Positions 13,112 to 45,767 of a stretch of DNA of 64,000 bases are shown one piece after another. The notes beneath the pieces were generated by a model, which did no database searches, was not told where the DNA came from, and worked only from the letters and a program-made list of their open reading frames with translations. Position numbers and translations under genes: made by a program. Every line of letters begins with the position of its first letter. The first letter of the stretch is position 1. This DNA comes from an uncultured Eubacteriales bacterium. Lineage in GTDB: Bacteria; Bacillota; Clostridia; Christensenellales; CAG-138. The stretch covers positions 141,058-205,057 of the forward strand of contig CACWYB010000002.1 of the NCBI GenBank assembly GCA_902765005.1, given 5' to 3'.

Positions 13112-13645
13112 ATGGCCTGGTATTGCCTGTTCTGCAAGGGCGGACAGGAGCAAAGCGTCATGCAGATGCTGCGGCAAAGGGGCGCCCTGCCCCTTTCGCC
13201 CCTGGTGGTGCGGCCGCGGCCGGGGCAGAAAGGGCTGGAGCGAGCCCAGGCCAGGCTCCTGCCCGGCTATGTCTTCTTTGAGCAGGAGGGGCCGGTGGAC
13301 TGGCCCGGGCTCCTGCGCTTTTCCGCCGTGCTGCGGGTGCTCCATTACCAGGATGAGGACCCGGTGCTGCGGGGGGCTGACCTTGCCTTCGTGGAGTGGC
13401 TCCAGCGATACGAGGGGCTCATCGACGTGTCGGAGGTTATGAAGGTGGGCACCAAGATCGCCTTCGTCAGCGGGCCGCTGGTGGGCATGGAGGCGAAGGT
13501 GCTGCAGGTGAACAAGAGTCGCAAAGCGGTGCAGATCGCCGTGGGGGACCAGGACTCCCTGCTGCAGGCGGTGTGGTGCTCCATCGAGTATGTGCAGGAG
13601 CATGTGGACCTGGAGCAGATGACCCATTCGGAGGGAAAGGAATAA
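13112..13645 (+). CDS. NusG-family specialised paralog (LoaP-like processive antiterminator)
   Basis: 177 aa. The NGN-like N-terminus reads MAWYCLFCKGGQEQSVMQML...LLPGYVFF. The KOW-like segment reads VGTKIAFVSGPLVGMEAKVLQVNKSRKAVQIAV. It sits at the head of the polysaccharide locus. Confidence 0.75.
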   Translation: MAWYCLFCKGGQEQSVMQMLRQRGALPLSPLVVRPRPGQKGLERAQARLLPGYVFFEQEGPVDWPGLLRFSAVLRVLHYQDEDPVLRGADLAFVEWLQRYEGLIDVSEVMKVGTKIAFVSGPLVGMEAKVLQVNKSRKAVQIAVGDQDSLLQAVWCSIEYVQEHVDLEQMTHSEGKE

Positions 13646-19278: not shown

Positions 19279-19363
19279 AGGGCACCCGCTGTCCAAGCGG
19301 CATGAAGGATAAACGCCTTGCCAAGCAGGGCAACCAAAAGGATACAACACAAGGAAGGAACCC

Positions 19364-20674
19364 ATGAACGATTTTCTAACCGATCCCAGATTCGCGGGGA
19401 TCAAGCCCTTTGAAAGCAAGCTCTGGCTCTCCTCCCCCACCATGCATGGGGATGAGCAGAGGTGGGTGGACGATGCCATCCGAACCAACTGGGTGTCCAC
19501 CGTCGGCGCAAACATCAACGAGGTGGAGCGGCAGATCGCCGAATACATCGGCGTGAAGTACGCGGTGGGCCTGTCTGCCGGCACGGCGGCCCTACACCTG
19601 GCCACGAAGCTGGCCGGCGAAAAGCTCTACGGCCAGGCACGGCCGAACCAGGGCACGCTGCAGGGGCACCGGGTGTTTTGCTCGGATATGACCTTCGACG
19701 CTTCCATCAACCCCGTGGCCTATGAGGACGGGGAAGCCGTGTTCATCGACACGGAGCCTGACACCTGGAACATGAGCCCGGAAGCCCTGGAGAAGGCGTT
19801 CGAGCTGTATCCAGACACCAAGCTGGTGGTGGTGGCTCATCTCTACGGCACCCCCGGAAAGATGGACCGGATCAAATCCATCTGCGACAGCCACGGCGCG
19901 CTGATCGTGGAGGACGCCGCTGAGAGCCTGGGCGCAAAGTATAAGCTGAACGGCACCTGGGTGGAGACCGGCACCCTGGGCAACTACAACTGCATCAGCT
20001 TTAACGGCAACAAGATCATCACCGGCAGCGCCGGTGGCATGTTCCTGACCGATTCCAAGGCAGATGCGGACAAGGCCCGCAAGTGGTCCACCCAGAGCCG
20101 GGAGGCCGCCCCCTGGTATCAGCATGAGGAGATCGGCTATAACTACCGCATGAGCAACATCATCGCGGGGATCGTCCGAGGCCAGATGCCCTATCTGGAT
20201 GAGCATATCGCTCAGAAGAAGGCCATCTACGAGCGCTACAAGGCAGGGCTCGCCGATCTGCCGGTCCGGATGAATCCCTTCGATGAAGAGAATTCACAGC
20301 CGAACTTCTGGCTTTCCTGCCTGATCATCGATGAGGACGCCATGGCGCCCATGGTCCGCGGAGAGCAGGACTACCTGTACAAGTCCGAGCCGGGGAAGAG
20401 CTCGCCCCATGAGATCCTGGATGCCCTGGCTGCCTTCAACGCGGAAGGCCGCCCCATCTGGAAGCCCATGCATATGCAGCCGATATATAGGACGAATGCG
20501 TTCGTGACGGTCGAGGGTAACGGTAGGGGCCGTACAAATGCCTATATTTCAGGCTCTGGAATTGACGTCGGAGCGGATATTTTCAGGAGAGGGTTATGCC
20601 TTCCCAGCGATAACAAGATGACTCCGGAGCAGCAGGATAGGATTATTGAGATCATCCATCGGTGCTTCCTCTAA
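19364..20674 (+). CDS. DegT/DnrJ/EryC1/StrS-family PLP aminotransferase (PglE-like sugar 4-aminotransferase)
   Basis: 436 aa with LSAGTAALHLA, IVEDAAESLGA and the PLP-Lys context SFNGNKIITGSAGG. It is the last GC-rich gene before the AT-rich cassette. Confidence 0.85.
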   Translation: MNDFLTDPRFAGIKPFESKLWLSSPTMHGDEQRWVDDAIRTNWVSTVGANINEVERQIAEYIGVKYAVGLSAGTAALHLATKLAGEKLYGQARPNQGTLQGHRVFCSDMTFDASINPVAYEDGEAVFIDTEPDTWNMSPEALEKAFELYPDTKLVVVAHLYGTPGKMDRIKSICDSHGALIVEDAAESLGAKYKLNGTWVETGTLGNYNCISFNGNKIITGSAGGMFLTDSKADADKARKWSTQSREAAPWYQHEEIGYNYRMSNIIAGIVRGQMPYLDEHIAQKKAIYERYKAGLADLPVRMNPFDEENSQPNFWLSCLIIDEDAMAPMVRGEQDYLYKSEPGKSSPHEILDALAAFNAEGRPIWKPMHMQPIYRTNAFVTVEGNGRGRTNAYISGSGIDVGADIFRRGLCLPSDNKMTPEQQDRIIEIIHRCFL

Positions 20675-20884
20675 ATCGGTTGGATGTGCATAAGGTAGTT
20701 GCATCGGTATCGGCTGAATGTGCATTGGGTGGTCAGATAGGGCGACAACGCATCTGCTGGACGTGCATGAGGTAACTATATCGGCATCTGCTGCATATGC
20801 ATTAGGGGTCAAATGTGCATCGGCTGAATATGACTGAGGTAGCCATATTGGAAAAATCGCATCTGCTGAATATGCATAAGGTAG
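20675..20884 (+). repeat. array of six degenerate direct repeats (24-nt core ATCKGCTGAATRTGCATWAGGTAG)
   Basis: Cores lie at 20675, 20709, 20752, 20786, 20819 and 20861 (spacings 34, 43, 34, 33, 42 nt). The stretch is non-coding, with stops in all frames. It sits exactly at the GC-to-AT switch. Confidence 0.85.
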
Positions 20885-20906
20885 TCAGATTTGAAAGGAA
20901 CCGAAG

Positions 20907-21338
20907 ATGAATAAGCGACTATGGCATTCGCTGCGGATCTCTTGGATGATGAGTTCGGGGAAGAGAGTCGAGTACTTAAGAAAACATAATGTTTTCGGTC
21001 ATATTGGGAAGAACTCTATCTGGCGTGGTAGATTGGTTCCTTTATATGCCGACAGGATATTTCTGGGCGATAACGTGCGTTGCGGATCCAGAGTCTATTT
21101 CATTACGCATGACGTTATTCATGACATGCTGAATCACCGAGAGGGAAATGACTTTGGATTCAAGGAGTTTATTGGGGATATACTGTTCATAGGATCGAAT
21201 TCTACAATTCTCGGTGGTGCAAATATTGGCTCAAACGTGATCGTTGGTGCAGGAAGCCTGGTGAATAAAGACATACCCTCAAATTCTGTTGTGGGGAGGT
21301 ACCGGCCAAGTACATATGTTCGTTTGATGACTTTGTAG
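20907..21338 (+). CDS. hexapeptide-repeat (LbH) acetyltransferase, C-terminus apparently frameshifted
   Basis: LbH repeats are present (IGSNSTILGGANIGSNVIVGAGSLVNKDIPSNSVVG). After the G4 run at 21293-21296 the family-typical tail VPAKYICSFDDFVEKRK continues in another frame, ending at TGA 21365-21367. Confidence 0.7.
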   Translation: MNKRLWHSLRISWMMSSGKRVEYLRKHNVFGHIGKNSIWRGRLVPLYADRIFLGDNVRCGSRVYFITHDVIHDMLNHREGNDFGFKEFIGDILFIGSNSTILGGANIGSNVIVGAGSLVNKDIPSNSVVGRYRPSTYVRLMTL

Positions 21339-21363
21339 AAAAAAGAAAAAGCGCATCTCAGGA

Positions 21364-22020
21364 ATGAGTGACTGGCGGGAAGAGTATATGAAACATAAAC
21401 CTTATGGGCCATATGAAAGATTTATTAAACGACCACAGGATTTTCTGTGTGCATTACTAGCCACGATTGTTCTTTCTCCAGTGTTGCTTATTGTAGCATT
21501 TCTGGTTCGCATAAAGTTGGGTAGTCCCATTTTATTTACCCAGGAACGGCCGGGAAGAAACGGAAGGATATTCAAACTATATAAGTTTCGCACCATGCTT
21601 CCTCCGAAGGACGGTGTGATTGATCCTAAACAGGATGCCGCAAGGTTGACGCCATTCGGTAAGAAATTGCGTAGCACTAGCCTAGACGAGCTCCCTGAAC
21701 TTTTCAACATGTTAAAGGGCGATATGGCAGTGGTTGGTCCTCGGCCTTTGCTTGTCCAGTATCTTGATAGATATGACGAGCATCAAGCGCGTCGTCACGA
21801 GGTAAGACCAGGATTTACAGGACTTGCACAGGTGCATGGCCGGAATGCTATCTCATGGGAAGAAAAGTTTGAATGGGATGTGAAGTATGTGGATCATGTC
21901 ACGTTTCTAGGCGACTGGAAGATCATTTTTGAGACAGTACGAACTGTTTTAAGACGTGACGGAATCAGTGCCGCTGGAGAAGCCACCATGGGGGAGTTTA
22001 TGGGGACGGAGAAGAATTGA
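21364..22020 (+). CDS. small priming phosphoglycosyl transferase (Bac_transf family, PglC/WbaP-C-like)
   Basis: It has one N-terminal TM segment. Family motifs are present (SPILFTQERPGRNGRIFKLYKFRTM, LDELPELFNMLKGDMAVVGPRP). An alternative start is ATG 21391. Confidence 0.85.
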   Translation: MSDWREEYMKHKPYGPYERFIKRPQDFLCALLATIVLSPVLLIVAFLVRIKLGSPILFTQERPGRNGRIFKLYKFRTMLPPKDGVIDPKQDAARLTPFGKKLRSTSLDELPELFNMLKGDMAVVGPRPLLVQYLDRYDEHQARRHEVRPGFTGLAQVHGRNAISWEEKFEWDVKYVDHVTFLGDWKIIFETVRTVLRRDGISAAGEATMGEFMGTEKN

Positions 22021-23594
22021 TGAGAATACTTTTTACAGGTGTTGGAAGACGAATAGAGCTACTCCAGTCTTTTCGCAACGCCGCGTTAGTTTTGAATAAA
22101 GAACTGAGAATCTACGGCGCTGATATGGCCGGAACGGCTCCTGCACTGGCGTATTGTGACTTTACAAGAAAAGTCGTCGCTATGAAGGATCCAAGGTACA
22201 TAGATAATCTTTTGTCTATTTGTGCTGATGATCACATCGATCTGCTCATTCCGACCATTGATACTGATCTGTTGGTGTTATCCGAAAATCAGAAAAAGTT
22301 TGAAGCTATCGGAACGAAAGTAATGATCAGCGCACCCGATAAGATTCGTATATGCCGGGATAAAAACAATACAAGCCAGTTCTTTGTGGATTGTGGCTTG
22401 CATGCACCGATGCCGGTGAATGATTGGAAAGAGTACAAGAGCGGCTATCCGGCCTTTATTAAGCCGAAGGACGGTAGCAGCTCTATTAACGCATTTAAGG
22501 TAGAGAATCAGGAAGAACTGGAAGTATATGCCGGACAGATTGAGGATTATATTGTCCAGCCGTTCGTGAGCGGACATGAATACACTATTGATATCTTCTG
22601 TGATTGGGAGGGTGAGCCGATAAGTATCGTGCCCCGTGAAAGGCTTCAAGTAAGAGCAGGAGAAGTCCTCAAAACCCAGATTTGTATGGACAAAACCATG
22701 ATTGAGGAGTCGAAGGCGTTGTGTAAGGCATTCAAGCCTTGCGGTCCGATGACTGTTCAACTGATTAGGGATGAAGCTGGCATCGACTGGTACATAGAGA
22801 TCAATCCCCGTTTTGGTGGCGGTGCACCTCTGTCCATGAAGGCTGGAGCAAGGAGTGCGGAAGCGATTCTTAAATTGTTAGATGGAGAAGAGGTAAAGGA
22901 ACCAAAGCTAGCCGATGGTGCTATATACAGCCGTTTCGATCAGTCCGTGTGCATCACGGAAGGCAAGGGTCAGATCAAAGGTGTTATTTTCGATCTGGAT
23001 GACACGCTTTACTCAGAGAAAGATTATGTCAAGAGCGGTTATAAGGCCGTAAGTGGTTACCTTGGTGGCGAATATGAAGAAAAGCTCTGGAGTTTCTTTG
23101 AAGAAGGAAAGCCAACCATAGATGAGTTACTGAAAGAACTGGGGCATGAAGACAAGAAGGCAGAAGTGCTGGAGATCTATCGTTCCCACAAGCCCGATAT
23201 TCATCTCTATCCTGGTGTGGCTGAGATGATAGAAACGCTGAAAAAAAAAGGAATAAAAGTCGGTATTATCACCGACGGAAGACCTGAAGGACAGCGGAAG
23301 AAACTGGAAGCACTAGGATTGGATGTTGATGATGTGATCATTACAGATGAGCTCGGAGGCGTTCAATTCCGTAAGCCTTGTGATATAGCATTTCGTATTC
23401 TGGTAACTCGGTGGCGGCTTAATCCAGCTGATGTTGTGTATATAGGCGACAATCCAACAAAGGATTTTCAGGCTCCACAGCAACTCGGAATGAAAAGTCT
23501 ATGGTTTATGAATGAAGATGGGTTGTATGCAGATGCGACTGGCTTCGATAGATGGAAGATTTCTTCATTGGATGAGTTGTTTTCAATAATCTGA
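22020..23594 (+). CDS. ATP-grasp enzyme fused to a C-terminal HAD-superfamily hydrolase domain
   Basis: The N-terminal ~300 aa are ATP-grasp-like (YPAFIKPKDGSSSINAFKV, YIVQPFVSGHEYTIDIF, WYIEINPRFGGG). The C-terminal ~210 aa carry HAD motifs (VIFDLDDTLY, ITDGRPEGQRKKL, YIGDNPTKDF). The ATG overlaps the upstream TGA. Confidence 0.75.
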   Translation: MRILFTGVGRRIELLQSFRNAALVLNKELRIYGADMAGTAPALAYCDFTRKVVAMKDPRYIDNLLSICADDHIDLLIPTIDTDLLVLSENQKKFEAIGTKVMISAPDKIRICRDKNNTSQFFVDCGLHAPMPVNDWKEYKSGYPAFIKPKDGSSSINAFKVENQEELEVYAGQIEDYIVQPFVSGHEYTIDIFCDWEGEPISIVPRERLQVRAGEVLKTQICMDKTMIEESKALCKAFKPCGPMTVQLIRDEAGIDWYIEINPRFGGGAPLSMKAGARSAEAILKLLDGEEVKEPKLADGAIYSRFDQSVCITEGKGQIKGVIFDLDDTLYSEKDYVKSGYKAVSGYLGGEYEEKLWSFFEEGKPTIDELLKELGHEDKKAEVLEIYRSHKPDIHLYPGVAEMIETLKKKGIKVGIITDGRPEGQRKKLEALGLDVDDVIITDELGGVQFRKPCDIAFRILVTRWRLNPADVVYIGDNPTKDFQAPQQLGMKSLWFMNEDGLYADATGFDRWKISSLDELFSII

Positions 23595-42796: not shown

Positions 42797-44029
42797 ATGA
42801 ACATTGCAGTAGCAGGAACAGGATATGTAGGTCTTTCATTGGCAGTGCTTTTGAGTCAGCACAATCATGTGACCGCCGTTGATATCCTGCCTGAGAAAGT
42901 TGAAAAGATCAATACTTGGAAAAGCCCGATCCAGGATGACTTTATTGAGAAGTATTTAGCGGAACATAAGGAACGGAAACTCGACCTGTCTGCAACAACA
43001 AATGCCGTTAGTGCCTATGCATCTGCAGATTATGTGGTCATCGCTGCTCCGACAAACTATGATCCGCAGAAAAACTTTTTTGATTGTTCTGCCGTAGAGA
43101 GCGTCATTGAGCTGGTGCTTCAATCTTCGGACACAGCCATAATGGTCATAAAATCCACCATTCCAGTTGGCTACACAGAGCGTGTGAGGGAAAAGTATCA
43201 CACGGATCGCATCCTGTTCAGCCCGGAGTTCTTGAGAGAGTCAAAAGCACTGTATGATAACCTTTATCCGAGTCGAATTATAGTAGGCTGCGATGAGGCA
43301 TCTAAACCCGCAGCTGAAGTATTCGCTCGTCTTCTGCAGGAAGGCGCTGAAAAACCGGATATCGATACGCTCTTTATGGGGTTTACAGAGGCAGAGGCGG
43401 TCAAGCTCTTCGCCAATACGTATCTAGCCCTTCGAGTCAGCTATTTTAATGAACTGGACACCTATGCCGAGATGAAGGGGCTGAATACTAAGGATATAAT
43501 CGATGGTGTATGCCTCGATCCTCGAATCGGTTCTCATTATAACAATCCGTCCTTTGGATACGGCGGATACTGCCTGCCGAAGGATACAAAGCAGCTTCTG
43601 GCAAACTATGCGGATGTACCGGAAAATCTGATTCAGGCGATTGTTGAGAGCAATAGAACAAGGAAAGACTTTATTGCTGACCGCGTCCTGGATAAGGCTG
43701 GGTATTACACGGCCTCCAGCATGTGGAATGCCGAGAAAGAGCGACCGCTGATCGTTGGCGTTTATCGGCTGACGATGAAGGCGAACTCCGATAACTTCCG
43801 ACAGAGCAGCATCCAAGGCGTCATGAAGCGTATAAAAGCCAAAGGTGCAACCGTCATCATTTACGAACCGACTCTCCAAGATGGAACGACCTTCTTCGGA
43901 AGCCTTGTAGTGAATGACATCGAGAAGTTTAAAAACGGATCAGATGCAATAATAGCAAACAGATATGACTCCATATTGGATGACGTGGGAGAGAAGGTTT
44001 ACACGAGAGACCTGTTCCGAAGAGATTAA
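42797..44029 (+). CDS. ugd: UDP-glucose 6-dehydrogenase
   Basis: Start taken at [14 protein letters not shown] (ATG 42797). It has SPEFLRE and the catalytic Cys context [10 protein letters not shown]. It is the last gene of the AT-rich cassette. Confidence 0.9.
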
Positions 44030-44216: not shown

Positions 44217-45767
44217 TTACCCAAACGCCACGATCACCTCTTCGATGTCGGGGTCGGTGTACCAGCGGCCGGAGAGGGACCAGGTGAGGTTTTGGTAACG
44301 GATGGAACTGGCCAGGGCCTGGGTGGCCTCGTGAGCCGATTCGGATAGAGACAACAGATTGGATTTGATCTCCGCCTCCTGGGCGGAGATTTTTTTATTC
44401 TCCGCCTTCTGGGCGCTGGTACGGCTGCCTTTCTTTTTCTCCCGCCAAGGGTTGGCGGCGTACAGGTGGGCCAGGGTGTCGGAGCCGTCCTCAAAGGTGC
44501 GGTAGAGGGCCAGATAGCTGTTGTAGCAGCTGGCGTACAGGGCTATTTGCTCCTCGGAGAAGGCGGTGCCGGCATCCTTCAGCTCCTGGACCCGGGTCAG
44601 GACCTTTTCTATTTGGCGAAGCCGCTTTAGTGTGAGAAAGCCTACGCTGAAGAGCCACCGTTCATACTGACGACTACAGGTGCCCATGGTGTCCGCATCA
44701 AAGCCGTAGACCTGCCGGATGACGTCCAGCCGGTTCTGCTGATCCACATAGGCAAAGCGCCAGTAGAATTCGATCTTGCCGATCTCCCCATACAGAGAAT
44801 GGGTGCGGATGTCCTCCGGGGCAAGGTTGGCGGCATAGTTCACCAGGGCCGTGGTTTGGATCAGGGTGGTGTTGGTGTAGATGCCGCTGTTGGCGGCGCT
44901 GATGAGCGCGGGGATCTGGGACAGCTTTCCCTCCGTTTTCAGCTTGTTGAAGATGGCCACCATCATGCGCCGCTGGCGGGCGGTGCGGGAGCTGTCCAGG
45001 CCGTCCGCGCTGCGACGAATGCGCAGGTAGCCCATGACCGCGTCCCCGTCCAGGTGCTGCATGCCCTTTTTGTAGGAATGCTTGCCGCTCATGGAGGTGA
45101 AGGCCTGGTCCACGTCGTAGTCGATGCCGCCGATGGCATCCACCACGTCCATGACCGCCTGAAAGTCCAACGCGTAGTAGTAGGGGATGGAAACGCCGCC
45201 CAGCCACATCTCCCCGGCCCGGCAGGTCAGCTCAAAGCCGTCCTTCAGATCGTTCGCCTGGCCGGTGGTTTTAAATTGGCCGCCCAGGCCCACGTTGAAC
45301 ACGCCGTTGAGCTTATAGAAGCCATAGTGGCCCGGAACCGTGGTCAGCAGATCCCGGGGCAGGGTGATCAGATCCACCGAATTCGTGTCGAAGTTCACGG
45401 CGACCACCATCATCACGTCCGTGTGGGGCATGGTGCCGCTGGTGGTGCTGCCGTCCTCACGGGCGTCGATGCCCATGAGCAGGATGTTCAGGATGTTGCC
45501 CTGGACCTGCGGGGCGGAGGCGGCGGCGGGAACGTCCTCCTGTTCAGGCTCATCGGGGACAGGCAGAGCCGGAGTCAGAGCGGTCTGCTTCGGCAGGACA
45601 AGGATGTCCGTGGGGGCAAAAAGGGAAGCGGGTCGAGAAAGGATCCGCCAGGCGAAAAACGCCGCAACCGCCAGGACTATGAGCGCCAGGGCCAGGATCA
45701 CCCGGCTGACGCGCCGTTTCGGCTTTGTATTCTGTTGAAAAGCGGCGTGCCGCTGCGCTTTTTCCAT
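44217..45767 (-). CDS. LCP family glycopolymer ligase with long C-terminal extension, copy 3
   Basis: 516 aa, GC-rich, with an AAGGAGG RBS. It has NILLMGIDARE...HTDVMMVVAVNFDTNSVDLITLPRD and MGYLRIRRSADGLDSSRTARQRRMM. It is collinear with copies 1 and 2. Confidence 0.85.
   Translation of the reverse strand: MEKAQRHAAFQQNTKPKRRVSRVILALALIVLAVAAFFAWRILSRPASLFAPTDILVLPKQTALTPALPVPDEPEQEDVPAAASAPQVQGNILNILLMGIDAREDGSTTSGTMPHTDVMMVVAVNFDTNSVDLITLPRDLLTTVPGHYGFYKLNGVFNVGLGGQFKTTGQANDLKDGFELTCRAGEMWLGGVSIPYYYALDFQAVMDVVDAIGGIDYDVDQAFTSMSGKHSYKKGMQHLDGDAVMGYLRIRRSADGLDSSRTARQRRMMVAIFNKLKTEGKLSQIPALISAANSGIYTNTTLIQTTALVNYAANLAPEDIRTHSLYGEIGKIEFYWRFAYVDQQNRLDVIRQVYGFDADTMGTCSRQYERWLFSVGFLTLKRLRQIEKVLTRVQELKDAGTAFSEEQIALYASCYNSYLALYRTFEDGSDTLAHLYAANPWREKKKGSRTSAQKAENKKISAQEAEIKSNLLSLSESAHEATQALASSIRYQNLTWSLSGRWYTDPDIEEVIVAFG

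Follow-up and report, generated by a model that had tools for sequence, protein, structure and literature searches.

The DegT Locus and Its Repeat Array

The window analyzed here is a stretch of 64,000 nucleotides (nt) of contig CACWYB010000002.1 from an uncultured Eubacteriales bacterium, and the element of interest is an array of six direct repeats on its plus strand that follows a gene for a DegT/DnrJ/EryC1-family sugar aminotransferase (DegT) in a polysaccharide operon. DegT spans 19364–20674 on the plus strand, encodes 436 amino acids (aa), and matches Pfam PF01041 with an E value of 6.5e-72; its best NCBIfam match, a LegC-family aminotransferase, lies below the cutoff. It is the last conserved gene ahead of a variable cassette of low GC content. 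Between its stop codon (20674) and the next open reading frame (ORF), an acetyltransferase starting at 20907, lies a gap of 232 nt (20675–20906), of which the array occupies 20675–20893.

The repeats start at 20675, 20709, 20752, 20786, 20819, and 20861, which corresponds to spacings of 34/43/34/33/42 nt. Unit 1 (20675–20708, 34-nt period) follows the TAA stop codon directly and scores 26.9 bits against a profile built from 90 units. Unit 2 (20709–20751, 43-nt period, 36.2 bits) has the longest complementarity to site S described below and is followed by unit 3 (20752–20785, 34-nt period, 32.5 bits). Within unit 4 (20786–20818, 33-nt period, 39.2 bits) lies a perfect palindrome, TGCATATGCA; this unit shares 97% identity with one of locus L152. 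Unit 5 (20819–20860, 42-nt period, 35.8 bits) precedes the last one, unit 6 (20861–20893, 39.7 bits), and directly 3' of unit 6 begins cassette-specific sequence common to the window and locus L173.

The six-copy array is real and nonrandom. A degenerate consensus with up to three mismatches finds seven sites in the window, compared with 0.00 expected from 100 shuffles, and the profile gives the six units 27–40 bits, with the 99.99th percentile of the window at 2.4 bits. Only seven profile matches of at least 8 bits occur in the window, namely the six units and S (23 bits). All six reading frames contain stops across the array; a coding repeat on either strand was hence rejected, as only about half of the periods are divisible by three in addition. 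The array sits on a compositional junction, with a GC content of 0.59 upstream and 0.45 downstream that goes down to 0.36–0.48 over 21–44 kb. The original prediction, made from the letters of the window alone, had given the number, starts, and alternating spacing of the copies, the 232-nt gap, the noncoding nature of the array, and its position on a GC/AT junction, all of which stand. Its 24-nt core is likewise repeated, but the true repeating unit is the full period of 33–43 nt, which extends beyond this core.

Site S and the Distribution of Its Inverted Copies

The core had been thought to occur nowhere else in the window. However, a seventh copy lies on the minus strand within DegT (20461–20484, 23 bits). 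It belongs to a 33-nt site termed S (20452–20484, plus strand; CCC ATC TGG AAG CCC ATG CAT ATG CAG CCG ATA), which encodes P-I-W-K-P-M-H-M-Q-P-I. Each unit is the reverse complement of S, and the likeness covers the whole 33-nt period: within the window, S and the units share an exact match of 13 nt and 18–21 of 24 positions, and in locus L227 the match extends over 18–19 nt at 89%. The remainder of DegT downstream of S, the 3' end that travels with the array (D3'; 20485–20674, plus strand), is present once, and neither a second S nor a displaced D3' or second DegT fragment was found in the window. The synonymous sites of S (AAG, CAT, CAG, and CCG) are near-invariant in array-bearing genes and variable in array-less genes. 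A survey of 2343 ORFs of all fetched loci for inverted copies of a gene segment past its own stop returned a three-copy match only for this DegT arrangement, on one contig that had been fetched as both L006 and L085; the two-copy matches are unrelated low-complexity or GC-rich sequences. An extra profile match in L270 was rejected as a second S, since it sits in another aminotransferase-like ORF.

Pattern scans of one genome per species, with a metagenome scan added, recovered the same architecture in 20 species-level genomes and 46 metagenome contigs: the core of S in minus orientation, then 217–228 nt, and then three to seven units in plus orientation from the DegT stop. This search for the consensus in related loci had been proposed along with the original prediction, and its matches are tied to DegT throughout. 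Unit 1 starts 217–228 nt past S, that is, at the stop codon of DegT, in 20 of 20 genome loci, and the spacing is similar in those metagenome contigs in which S is still present. The pattern scans show a single array locus in each genome, and in the 20 genomes and 46 contigs none lies beside any gene other than DegT; where contigs are cut or rearranged, only the S-to-stop fragment of DegT, or nothing, remains upstream of the array. The periods are bimodal, with 43 cases of 32–34 nt and 23 cases of 42–44 nt. Array-bearing genomes belong to gut Clostridia, mostly from ruminants or the rumen, and include Lachnospiraceae, Oscillospiraceae, Ruminococcus, Eubacterium, [Clostridium] aminophilum KH1P1, Sarcina sp. 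DSM 11001, and Lachnospiraceae FE2018. Single pattern matches in other phyla (∼80) are close to the number that we estimate to occur by chance (∼69).

The array is optional, being absent from 77 of the 80 closest DegT orthologues, and at array-less orthologous loci the next gene follows the DegT stop after a median of 15.5 nt. The wider gene context varies from one array locus to another, both upstream and downstream, with DegT as the only constant neighbor. Dispersed repeats of the repetitive extragenic palindromic (REP), BOX, or miniature inverted-repeat transposable element type were rejected, as the window holds no copy beyond the array and S and each genome has a single locus, always beside DegT. 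Plasmid-type iterons were rejected as well: the neighbors are DegT and glycan-synthesis genes, and no match to the array was found in 72,556 plasmid records. A plasmid or phage origin of the whole arrangement was dismissed in the absence of plasmid or phage matches.

The DegT orthologue itself (loci L001–L080) retains 65–89% protein identity (best tblastn segment) across very different rumen taxa, which by their record titles comprise Clostridia, Selenomonas, Erysipelotrichaceae, and metagenome-assembled genomes (MAGs) labeled Bacteroidota, Planctomycetales, and Saccharibacteria. Such a spread could mean that the gene itself is often transferred horizontally or that the MAGs are contaminated.

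A gene segment with inverted copies outside the gene could also be an invertible switch. In such a switch, a partial intergenic inverton, an invertase would use S and the inverted units as its repeats, and a flip would truncate DegT to ...QPI* and turn the glycan off. The geometry suits this explanation, with one inverted repeat in the gene, four to seven just outside it, and exact matches of 13–18 nt; furthermore, the sequence itself shows that the reading frame would run straight into a stop codon after inversion. Invertons of the partial intergenic and premature-stop kinds have been described in gut bacteria (bioRxiv 10.1101/2023.03.11.532203). However, the flipped state occurs in 0 of the 66 assembled loci, and no strand-change joints were seen in 11 runs, including an isolate at 275×, by contigs only, in which rare variants are invisible. 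The window contains no invertase gene, and multiple tandem repeats on the right-hand side are atypical of invertons. Such a switch is thus considered very unlikely.

Conservation of the Repeat Units

Units are conserved individually between species. Among 90 units, 84 are closer to a unit of another species (mean best identity of 0.85, up to 100%) than to the units of their own array (0.71). Two pairs of collinear arrays, L076–L155 and L152–L171, are 83% and 79% identical, respectively, compared with 44% and 55% at the adjacent third codon positions of DegT. The array is under purifying selection. Because units and collinear arrays are conserved beyond the adjacent third codon positions, a neutral recombination scar is excluded by the unit-by-unit conservation across species. 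The original suggestion of a recombination hotspot or scar at the cassette boundary is partly supported, by breakpoints at both edges of the module and by a recombinase element joined at S in related contigs (see below), although not as a neutral scar.

Within the unit, variability is found chiefly at positions 9, 12, 15, and 18, each of which corresponds to the third position of a codon when S is read in frame. Almost only A or G occurs at position 12, and only C or T at position 6. We take this pattern to mean that the units were inherited from a coding target or are recognized in common with one. It would be expected if the units were recognized by something that has evolved to read coding sequence across many alleles, although the fit is imperfect, with positions 3, 9, and 15 departing from such a pattern.

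The S-to-Array Module and the Mosaicism of DegT

Array-bearing DegT genes are mosaics. Their pairwise third-position identity is 0.40 over codons 20–365, which represents the saturated baseline, and 0.57 from codon 366 to the stop. In the window, the GC content at third codon positions (GC3) is 0.85, and thus host-like, for codons 1–365 and 0.61 for codons 366–436; in general, the GC3 of the 5' part tracks the host (0.85 in the window, 0.27 in L131), and that of the 3' part is 0.52–0.62 everywhere. Maximum-likelihood change points fall at codons 360–366 in 24 of 30 strongly mosaic array-bearing pairs, compared with a strong change point in two of 300 array-less control pairs, none of them near S. 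Likewise, the similarities of the 5' and 3' parts are uncorrelated in array-bearing genes (rho −0.18) and correlated in array-less ones (rho 0.59). The 5' parts of array-bearing genes are often nearest to array-less genes, as exemplified by the window, whose 5' part is 0.83 identical to that of the array-less L001. The module hence has a separate ancestry and a sharp left edge at S.

On the right-hand side, downstream DNA is unrelated in most pairs (mean identity of 0.45) or is common to them independently of the module. The window and L173, for instance, are 0.6–0.75 identical upstream of the array and 0.82–0.95 identical from just past it. Because change points lie at S and downstream cassettes either differ or are shared independently, S, D3', and the array constitute a unit of ∼0.45 kb that recombines at both ends. 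Nucleotide constraint without transfer was rejected as the cause of the raised 3' similarity on the grounds of the uncorrelated 5' and 3' matrices and of the pair L076–L157, in which the 5' parts are 0.91–0.95 and the 3' parts 0.69–0.73 identical. Within this pair, the genes are 95% identical to codon ∼302 and 73% identical thereafter, which places the breakpoint upstream of S and the greater divergence in the 3' part.

The module also stands out in assemblies. The assembly graph of the source metagenome (run X1) breaks at S (20459–20484) and near the DegT stop (20626–20655), and array loci of public MAGs often terminate at the array or just past it; the S-to-array module is therefore a systematic assembly breakpoint. 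In run X5, a unitig of 260 nt spans the array region (20631–20890) with zero differences.

Serine-Recombinase Elements Joined at S

Several metagenome contigs contain S, D3', array, and cassette without the 5' part of DegT and with unrelated DNA on the left (L227, L277, L216, L225, L246, and L266), and represent promoter-less orphans. In these contigs, DegT homology starts at, or within ∼12 nt of, AAGCCCATG, and at least three types of junction can be distinguished.

One junction, type b, was found in at least five contigs from at least four samples (L227, L249, L276, L277, and L279). Herein, DegT homology begins at ...CAATTTGCA followed by AAGCCCATGCATATGCAGCCGAT. L227, L276, and L277 share exactly the same junction of ...CAATTTGCA with AAGCCCATGCAT..., from which L279 and L249 differ only slightly. 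The DNA on its left encodes an XRE-type helix-turn-helix protein, an AAA_25 ATPase, a 615-aa large serine recombinase (LSR; PF00239 and PF07508), and proteins of 221 and 131 aa. These genes are followed by a strong hairpin, by six to seven direct repeats that resemble the element's own terminal half-site (periods 31/32/33/43/43), and by the terminus ...CAATTTGCA, which abuts AAGCCC.... In L227, the repeats of the element side lie at 1898–2130 and the element end at 1800–2147. The 615-aa protein with its Resolvase and Recombinase domains is encoded 1.2 kb left of the S junction in L276, L277, and L279; L227 and L249 carry the same element end, and the recombinase gene would lie past the contig edge. 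LSR elements are thus physically joined at S in related contigs.

These elements lie between glycan cassettes. In L276, the recombinase module is preceded on its left by the final part of a glycan cassette, with two UDP-glucose dehydrogenases, an epimerase, and an IS3 element, and no DegT 5' part was found within 10 kb on that side of the junction. In L277, the junction leads on its right into D3', an array of six units, a small ORF, and a new cassette (Bac_transf, acetyltransferase, ATP-grasp, and glycosyltransferases). A related element in L286 is likewise placed between cassettes, with one glycan cassette ending on one side and the next starting with DegT/Bac_transf on the other. It has an 80%-identical recombinase, a homologous hairpin, and five direct repeats that copy its own terminal half-site. 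Its terminus aligns to the same position, and both the repeat sequence and the target are different. On the target side of this element, upstream of a full-length DegT (L286:9540–9950), several TCTTAAAGAGACGGTCGGG-like copies resemble the junction sequence, which makes L286 a second case of target-like repeats beside an element junction.

Two further junction types meet S, namely type a (L216, L225, L246, and L274) and that of L266. No viral contig matched the flank of type a. L274, from the MAG Christensenella sp. UBA4263, contains two DegT 3' fragments in direct orientation ∼2.3 kb apart (oriented coordinates 182–280 and 2560–2840), which flank a 530-aa ATPase-like ORF; one degenerate repeat unit follows the first fragment and small toxin–antitoxin-like genes follow the second, and the record has a gap of 59 Ns within S. 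A 90%-identical homologue context in L282 (39–6842) comprises three serine-recombinase genes (500, 403, and 613 aa) within ∼7 kb in a nonglycan setting, next to DUF7723, DUF4869, and DUF2442. For the window itself, a simple integrated element with the native DegT 3' end displaced past the 23-kb cassette was rejected, as no second fragment, second S, element end, or recombinase is present.

RNA, Promoter, and Regulator Signals

The array was also considered as an RNA element. The array alone folds no better than shuffled sequences on either strand (z-scores of 0.17 and −0.33), and no Rfam model matches it at the gathering threshold, the only hits with E<10 being two archaeal snoRNA models at 11–13 bits. 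No tRNA or transfer-messenger RNA was found in the array, nor was a terminator. A hairpin between head and tail of the unit (ATCTGC...GTAGAT) was rejected for lack of covariation, with position 4 (G or T) varying independently of position 27; intra-unit covariation is absent altogether. In addition, the fetched upstream DNA of array loci elsewhere contains no match to the NusG-paralog gene of the window. The structured RNA, or target of the NusG paralog, proposed originally is therefore not borne out, and the covariation and folding analysis suggested with it came back negative.

A different RNA role would involve S. As a cis-acting element, the units could pair with S in the operon mRNA and form a long-range stem of 16–28 bp around the last 70 codons. 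Where conserved genes give way to variable ones, such a stem would govern processing, protection of the 3' end, or translation, much as in retroregulation or at an RNase III site. Predicted duplexes of S with 108 units have a mean of −29 kcal/mol and a per-locus best of −37.7 kcal/mol, compared with −15.5 ± 3.9 kcal/mol for shuffled units, and unit 2 of the window is predicted to pair with S over ∼28 bp (−54.6 kcal/mol with flanks). RNAalifold places a 20-bp stem between S and unit 1 in 13 of 13 loci. The abutment of unit 1 on the stop codon in all loci and the near-invariant synonymous sites of S, which are confined to array-bearing genes, agree with such a stem, as do contigs from three rumen metatranscriptomes that run from the DegT 3' end into related arrays, although DNA carry-over is possible in these.

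However, the stem lacks covariation (term of −0.02) because S is invariant, and several positions of the units mismatch it: 81 of 90 units have a mismatching A at position 19, only about one-third pair at position 9, and 42 of 90 have T at position 4. Changes from T to C, which break pairing, occur 32 times, about as often as the 38 changes from A to G that would preserve it as G–U. The array folds are no more stable than shuffles, as mentioned above, six copies for a single partner are left unexplained, and neither the separate phylogeny of the module nor the recombinase junctions are accounted for. On balance, a role in RNA is deemed unlikely.

The weak promoter that had been proposed in the last unit (TTGGAA, 17 nt, TATGCA) is not supported. 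A consensus scan of 19300–22100 yields zero promoter-like sites, compared with 2.5 expected, and arrays differ in the spacer in which TTGGAA lies. This bears on the iteron-like regulator sites of the original prediction, according to which the array would be an operator for a transcription factor of the cassette genes. In its favor, the copies are phased at periods of 33/34 and 42/43 nt, or ∼3 and 4 helical turns, their core shows both asymmetry and conservation, and purifying selection acts on the array. On the other hand, there is no promoter-like site and no consistently linked regulator gene, with flanking genes varying by locus; the majority of orthologous operons are array-less and tightly packed; and the identity of the units with S would go unexplained. 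An operator array is hence held to be highly improbable.

A Candidate Module for Glycan-Cassette Exchange

Judging from these comparisons of sequence, the finding is best read as a serine-recombinase target site with an unusual tandem array of inverted self-copies in a setting of glycan-cassette exchange. Of the three roles in the original prediction, recombination comes closest, is partly supported, and takes a more specific form. In the explanation that is tentatively favored, with somewhat less than even confidence, the array would consist of recombinase-recognition (pseudo-attachment, pseudo-att) repeats within a module for the exchange of glycan cassettes. Herein, S would be the attachment or crossover site of LSR-encoding integrative elements that lie between glycan-biosynthesis cassettes of gut Clostridia, and the stretch of ∼0.45 kb made up of S, the last 70 codons of DegT, and the array would be a portable module that flags where an exchangeable cassette begins. 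The units would most likely act on the level of DNA as recognition sites for the protein that recognizes S. They may be accessory or pseudo-att sites, comparable with the element's own terminal half-site array across the junction; the recombinase or a partner protein would bind them, and binding would promote or control cassette exchange. Because arrays also occur on the element side and the repeats track the terminal or core sequence in two element–target pairs, the arrays are suggested to be protein-recognition sites of the recombination system. As the recombinase is absent from the window, the module found there may be a remnant of the left junction.

Several points weigh against this explanation. 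To our knowledge, characterized LSRs use simple att sites of 40–50 bp without accessory repeats. The units are asymmetric and point away from S, which offers no obvious geometry for a complex. The 64-kb window contains neither a recombinase gene nor an element end, and most array loci have an intact DegT on the left. The junctions of LSR elements with S amount to essentially one insertion lineage, in addition to one related element at another target, and only the attR-like (right-hand) junction was recovered; attL, attP, and an excised circle were not found. Moreover, the clustering of breakpoints at S could in part reflect that S is the longest perfectly conserved stretch for homologous recombination. 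Finally, the element integrated at S despite six neighboring repeats, which speaks against a simple decoy role.

Such a decoy is the basis of another explanation, in which the host keeps copies of the target as a pseudo-attB or immunity array that diverts or blocks integration and thus protects DegT. It follows the same recognition logic, with units that copy the sequence at which the element joins, and it would fit units that are under selection and lie in noncoding DNA directly beside the real target. However, the observed insertions occur only at S, in array-bearing loci, and none lies inside an array. Furthermore, the array travels together with D3' as a horizontally spread module, which links it more to the elements than to host defense. 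A protective array is accordingly rated as quite unlikely.

The cassette-exchange explanation can be extended to a more far-reaching proposal, which is doubtful at present. Gut Clostridia would exchange whole surface-glycan cassettes through a dedicated site-specific system of cassette-carrying LSR elements that integrate at an 11-codon site in DegT and bring their own gene 3' end, and the tandem arrays of att copies on both sides (inverted on the host side, direct on the element side) would be accessory recombinase-binding arms that control the reaction. This would represent an architecture of serine-integrase att sites that has not been described before and a serotype switch that operates by stacking expressed and silent cassettes.

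Diversity of surface polysaccharides drives phage resistance, host interaction, and the coexistence of strains in gut and rumen communities, and the swapping of whole glycan cassettes across Firmicutes species is poorly understood. The locus offers a concrete candidate device for it, comprising a crossover site in a coding sequence, a portable adapter for the 3' end of a gene, and arrays of site copies, linked to serine-recombinase elements. Should the arrays prove to be accessory recombinase sites, the att sites of large serine integrases, a common tool of genome engineering, would turn out to have a broader architecture than is known so far, and the mosaicism of DegT across rumen taxa would be explained. 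Irrespective of the mechanism, a conserved and selected noncoding element is present in at least 66 loci, and cultured isolates exist.

Comparison with Known Systems

LSR elements that target genes reportedly include SPbeta in the polysaccharide gene spsM of Bacillus subtilis, skin in sigK, and A118 in comK. The elements described here share with them a protein of ∼600 aa with Resolvase and Recombinase domains at the element end and a precise junction with conserved coding sequence, in this case S in a gene for polysaccharide synthesis. In contrast, three to seven inverted copies of the target lie in tandem behind it here, and five to seven repeats of the element's own terminal half-site are found at the element end; we know of no such repeat arrays at characterized LSR att sites. 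Unlike LSR prophages, moreover, these elements lie between alternative glycan cassettes, and the window itself is without a recombinase.

Phased recombinase-binding motifs are known from subsites I–III of the res sites of Tn3 and gamma-delta, from the direct repeats of Sin site II, and from the subterminal repeats of Tn7 and Mu. Accessory sites of res and of transposon ends control directionality or target immunity, and copies of the Sin type are direct repeats. The array resembles these systems in having several phased copies of a motif beside a crossover site or terminus. However, the known arrays lie within ∼100–150 bp of the crossover and bind the resolvase or transposase of the element to which they belong, whereas the host-side array starts 217 nt away, beyond a coding segment, and its binding is putative.

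Partial intergenic and intragenic invertons and shufflons (bioRxiv 10.1101/2023.03.11.532203) likewise combine one repeat in the coding sequence with inverted copies outside it and a predicted premature stop. They differ from the locus, for which neither the 66 loci nor the 11 runs contain a flipped form, in the many tandem copies that the locus has on its right-hand side and in its lack of alternative C-terminal segments.

JUMPstart/ops and EAR-type elements within operons are targets for RfaH-type or processive antitermination. With these, the array has in common that it is a noncoding element in a polysaccharide operon that also encodes a NusG paralog. It departs from them in having no Rfam match and no conserved structure, and its constant neighbor is DegT rather than the NusG paralog.

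Orphan or silent cassettes are known from the orphan toxin modules of rhs/cdi and from pilE/pilS. In the present case as well, a short conserved piece of an expressed gene (S and D3') precedes each alternative module, and orphans without a promoter exist. Unlike in those systems, exchange appears to be linked with a serine-recombinase element, not with gene conversion mediated by RecA, and no counterpart of the tandem inverted copies is known from them.

Neighboring Genes

In one group of array loci, a small ORF of ∼75–85 aa (MSCFISRKKDKISAVFEAVG.DADEESFIA.FK..YPNDW...) lies directly 3' of the last unit. It has no Pfam or NCBIfam family and occurs at L076:5579–5797, at L133:128–373, after the arrays of L006 and L111, and from L227:2577 onward.

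Upstream of the array, the window encodes a LoaP-like NusG paralog, two LCP proteins, a CapD-like dehydratase, and DegT. The NusG paralog (13112–13645) is located at the head of the polysaccharide operon; its best NCBIfam match is the antiterminator LoaP with 66.5 bits, which is under the cutoff of 125 bits. The first gene of the low-GC variable cassette encodes a hexapeptide-repeat acetyltransferase (20907–21338, plus strand), and a Bac_transf initiating transferase (21364–22020) is next. The cassette is part of a 23-kb block (21000–44100) with a GC content of 36–48% in a genome of ∼62%, which starts right after the array and contains no mobility genes but only genes for glycan synthesis. These encode LicD, an IspD-like protein, the rhamnose pathway, glycosyltransferases, an EpsG-like polymerase, an acyltransferase, and a UDP-glucose dehydrogenase. 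The block ends at 44029, opposite a convergent third LCP gene on the minus strand (44217–45767).

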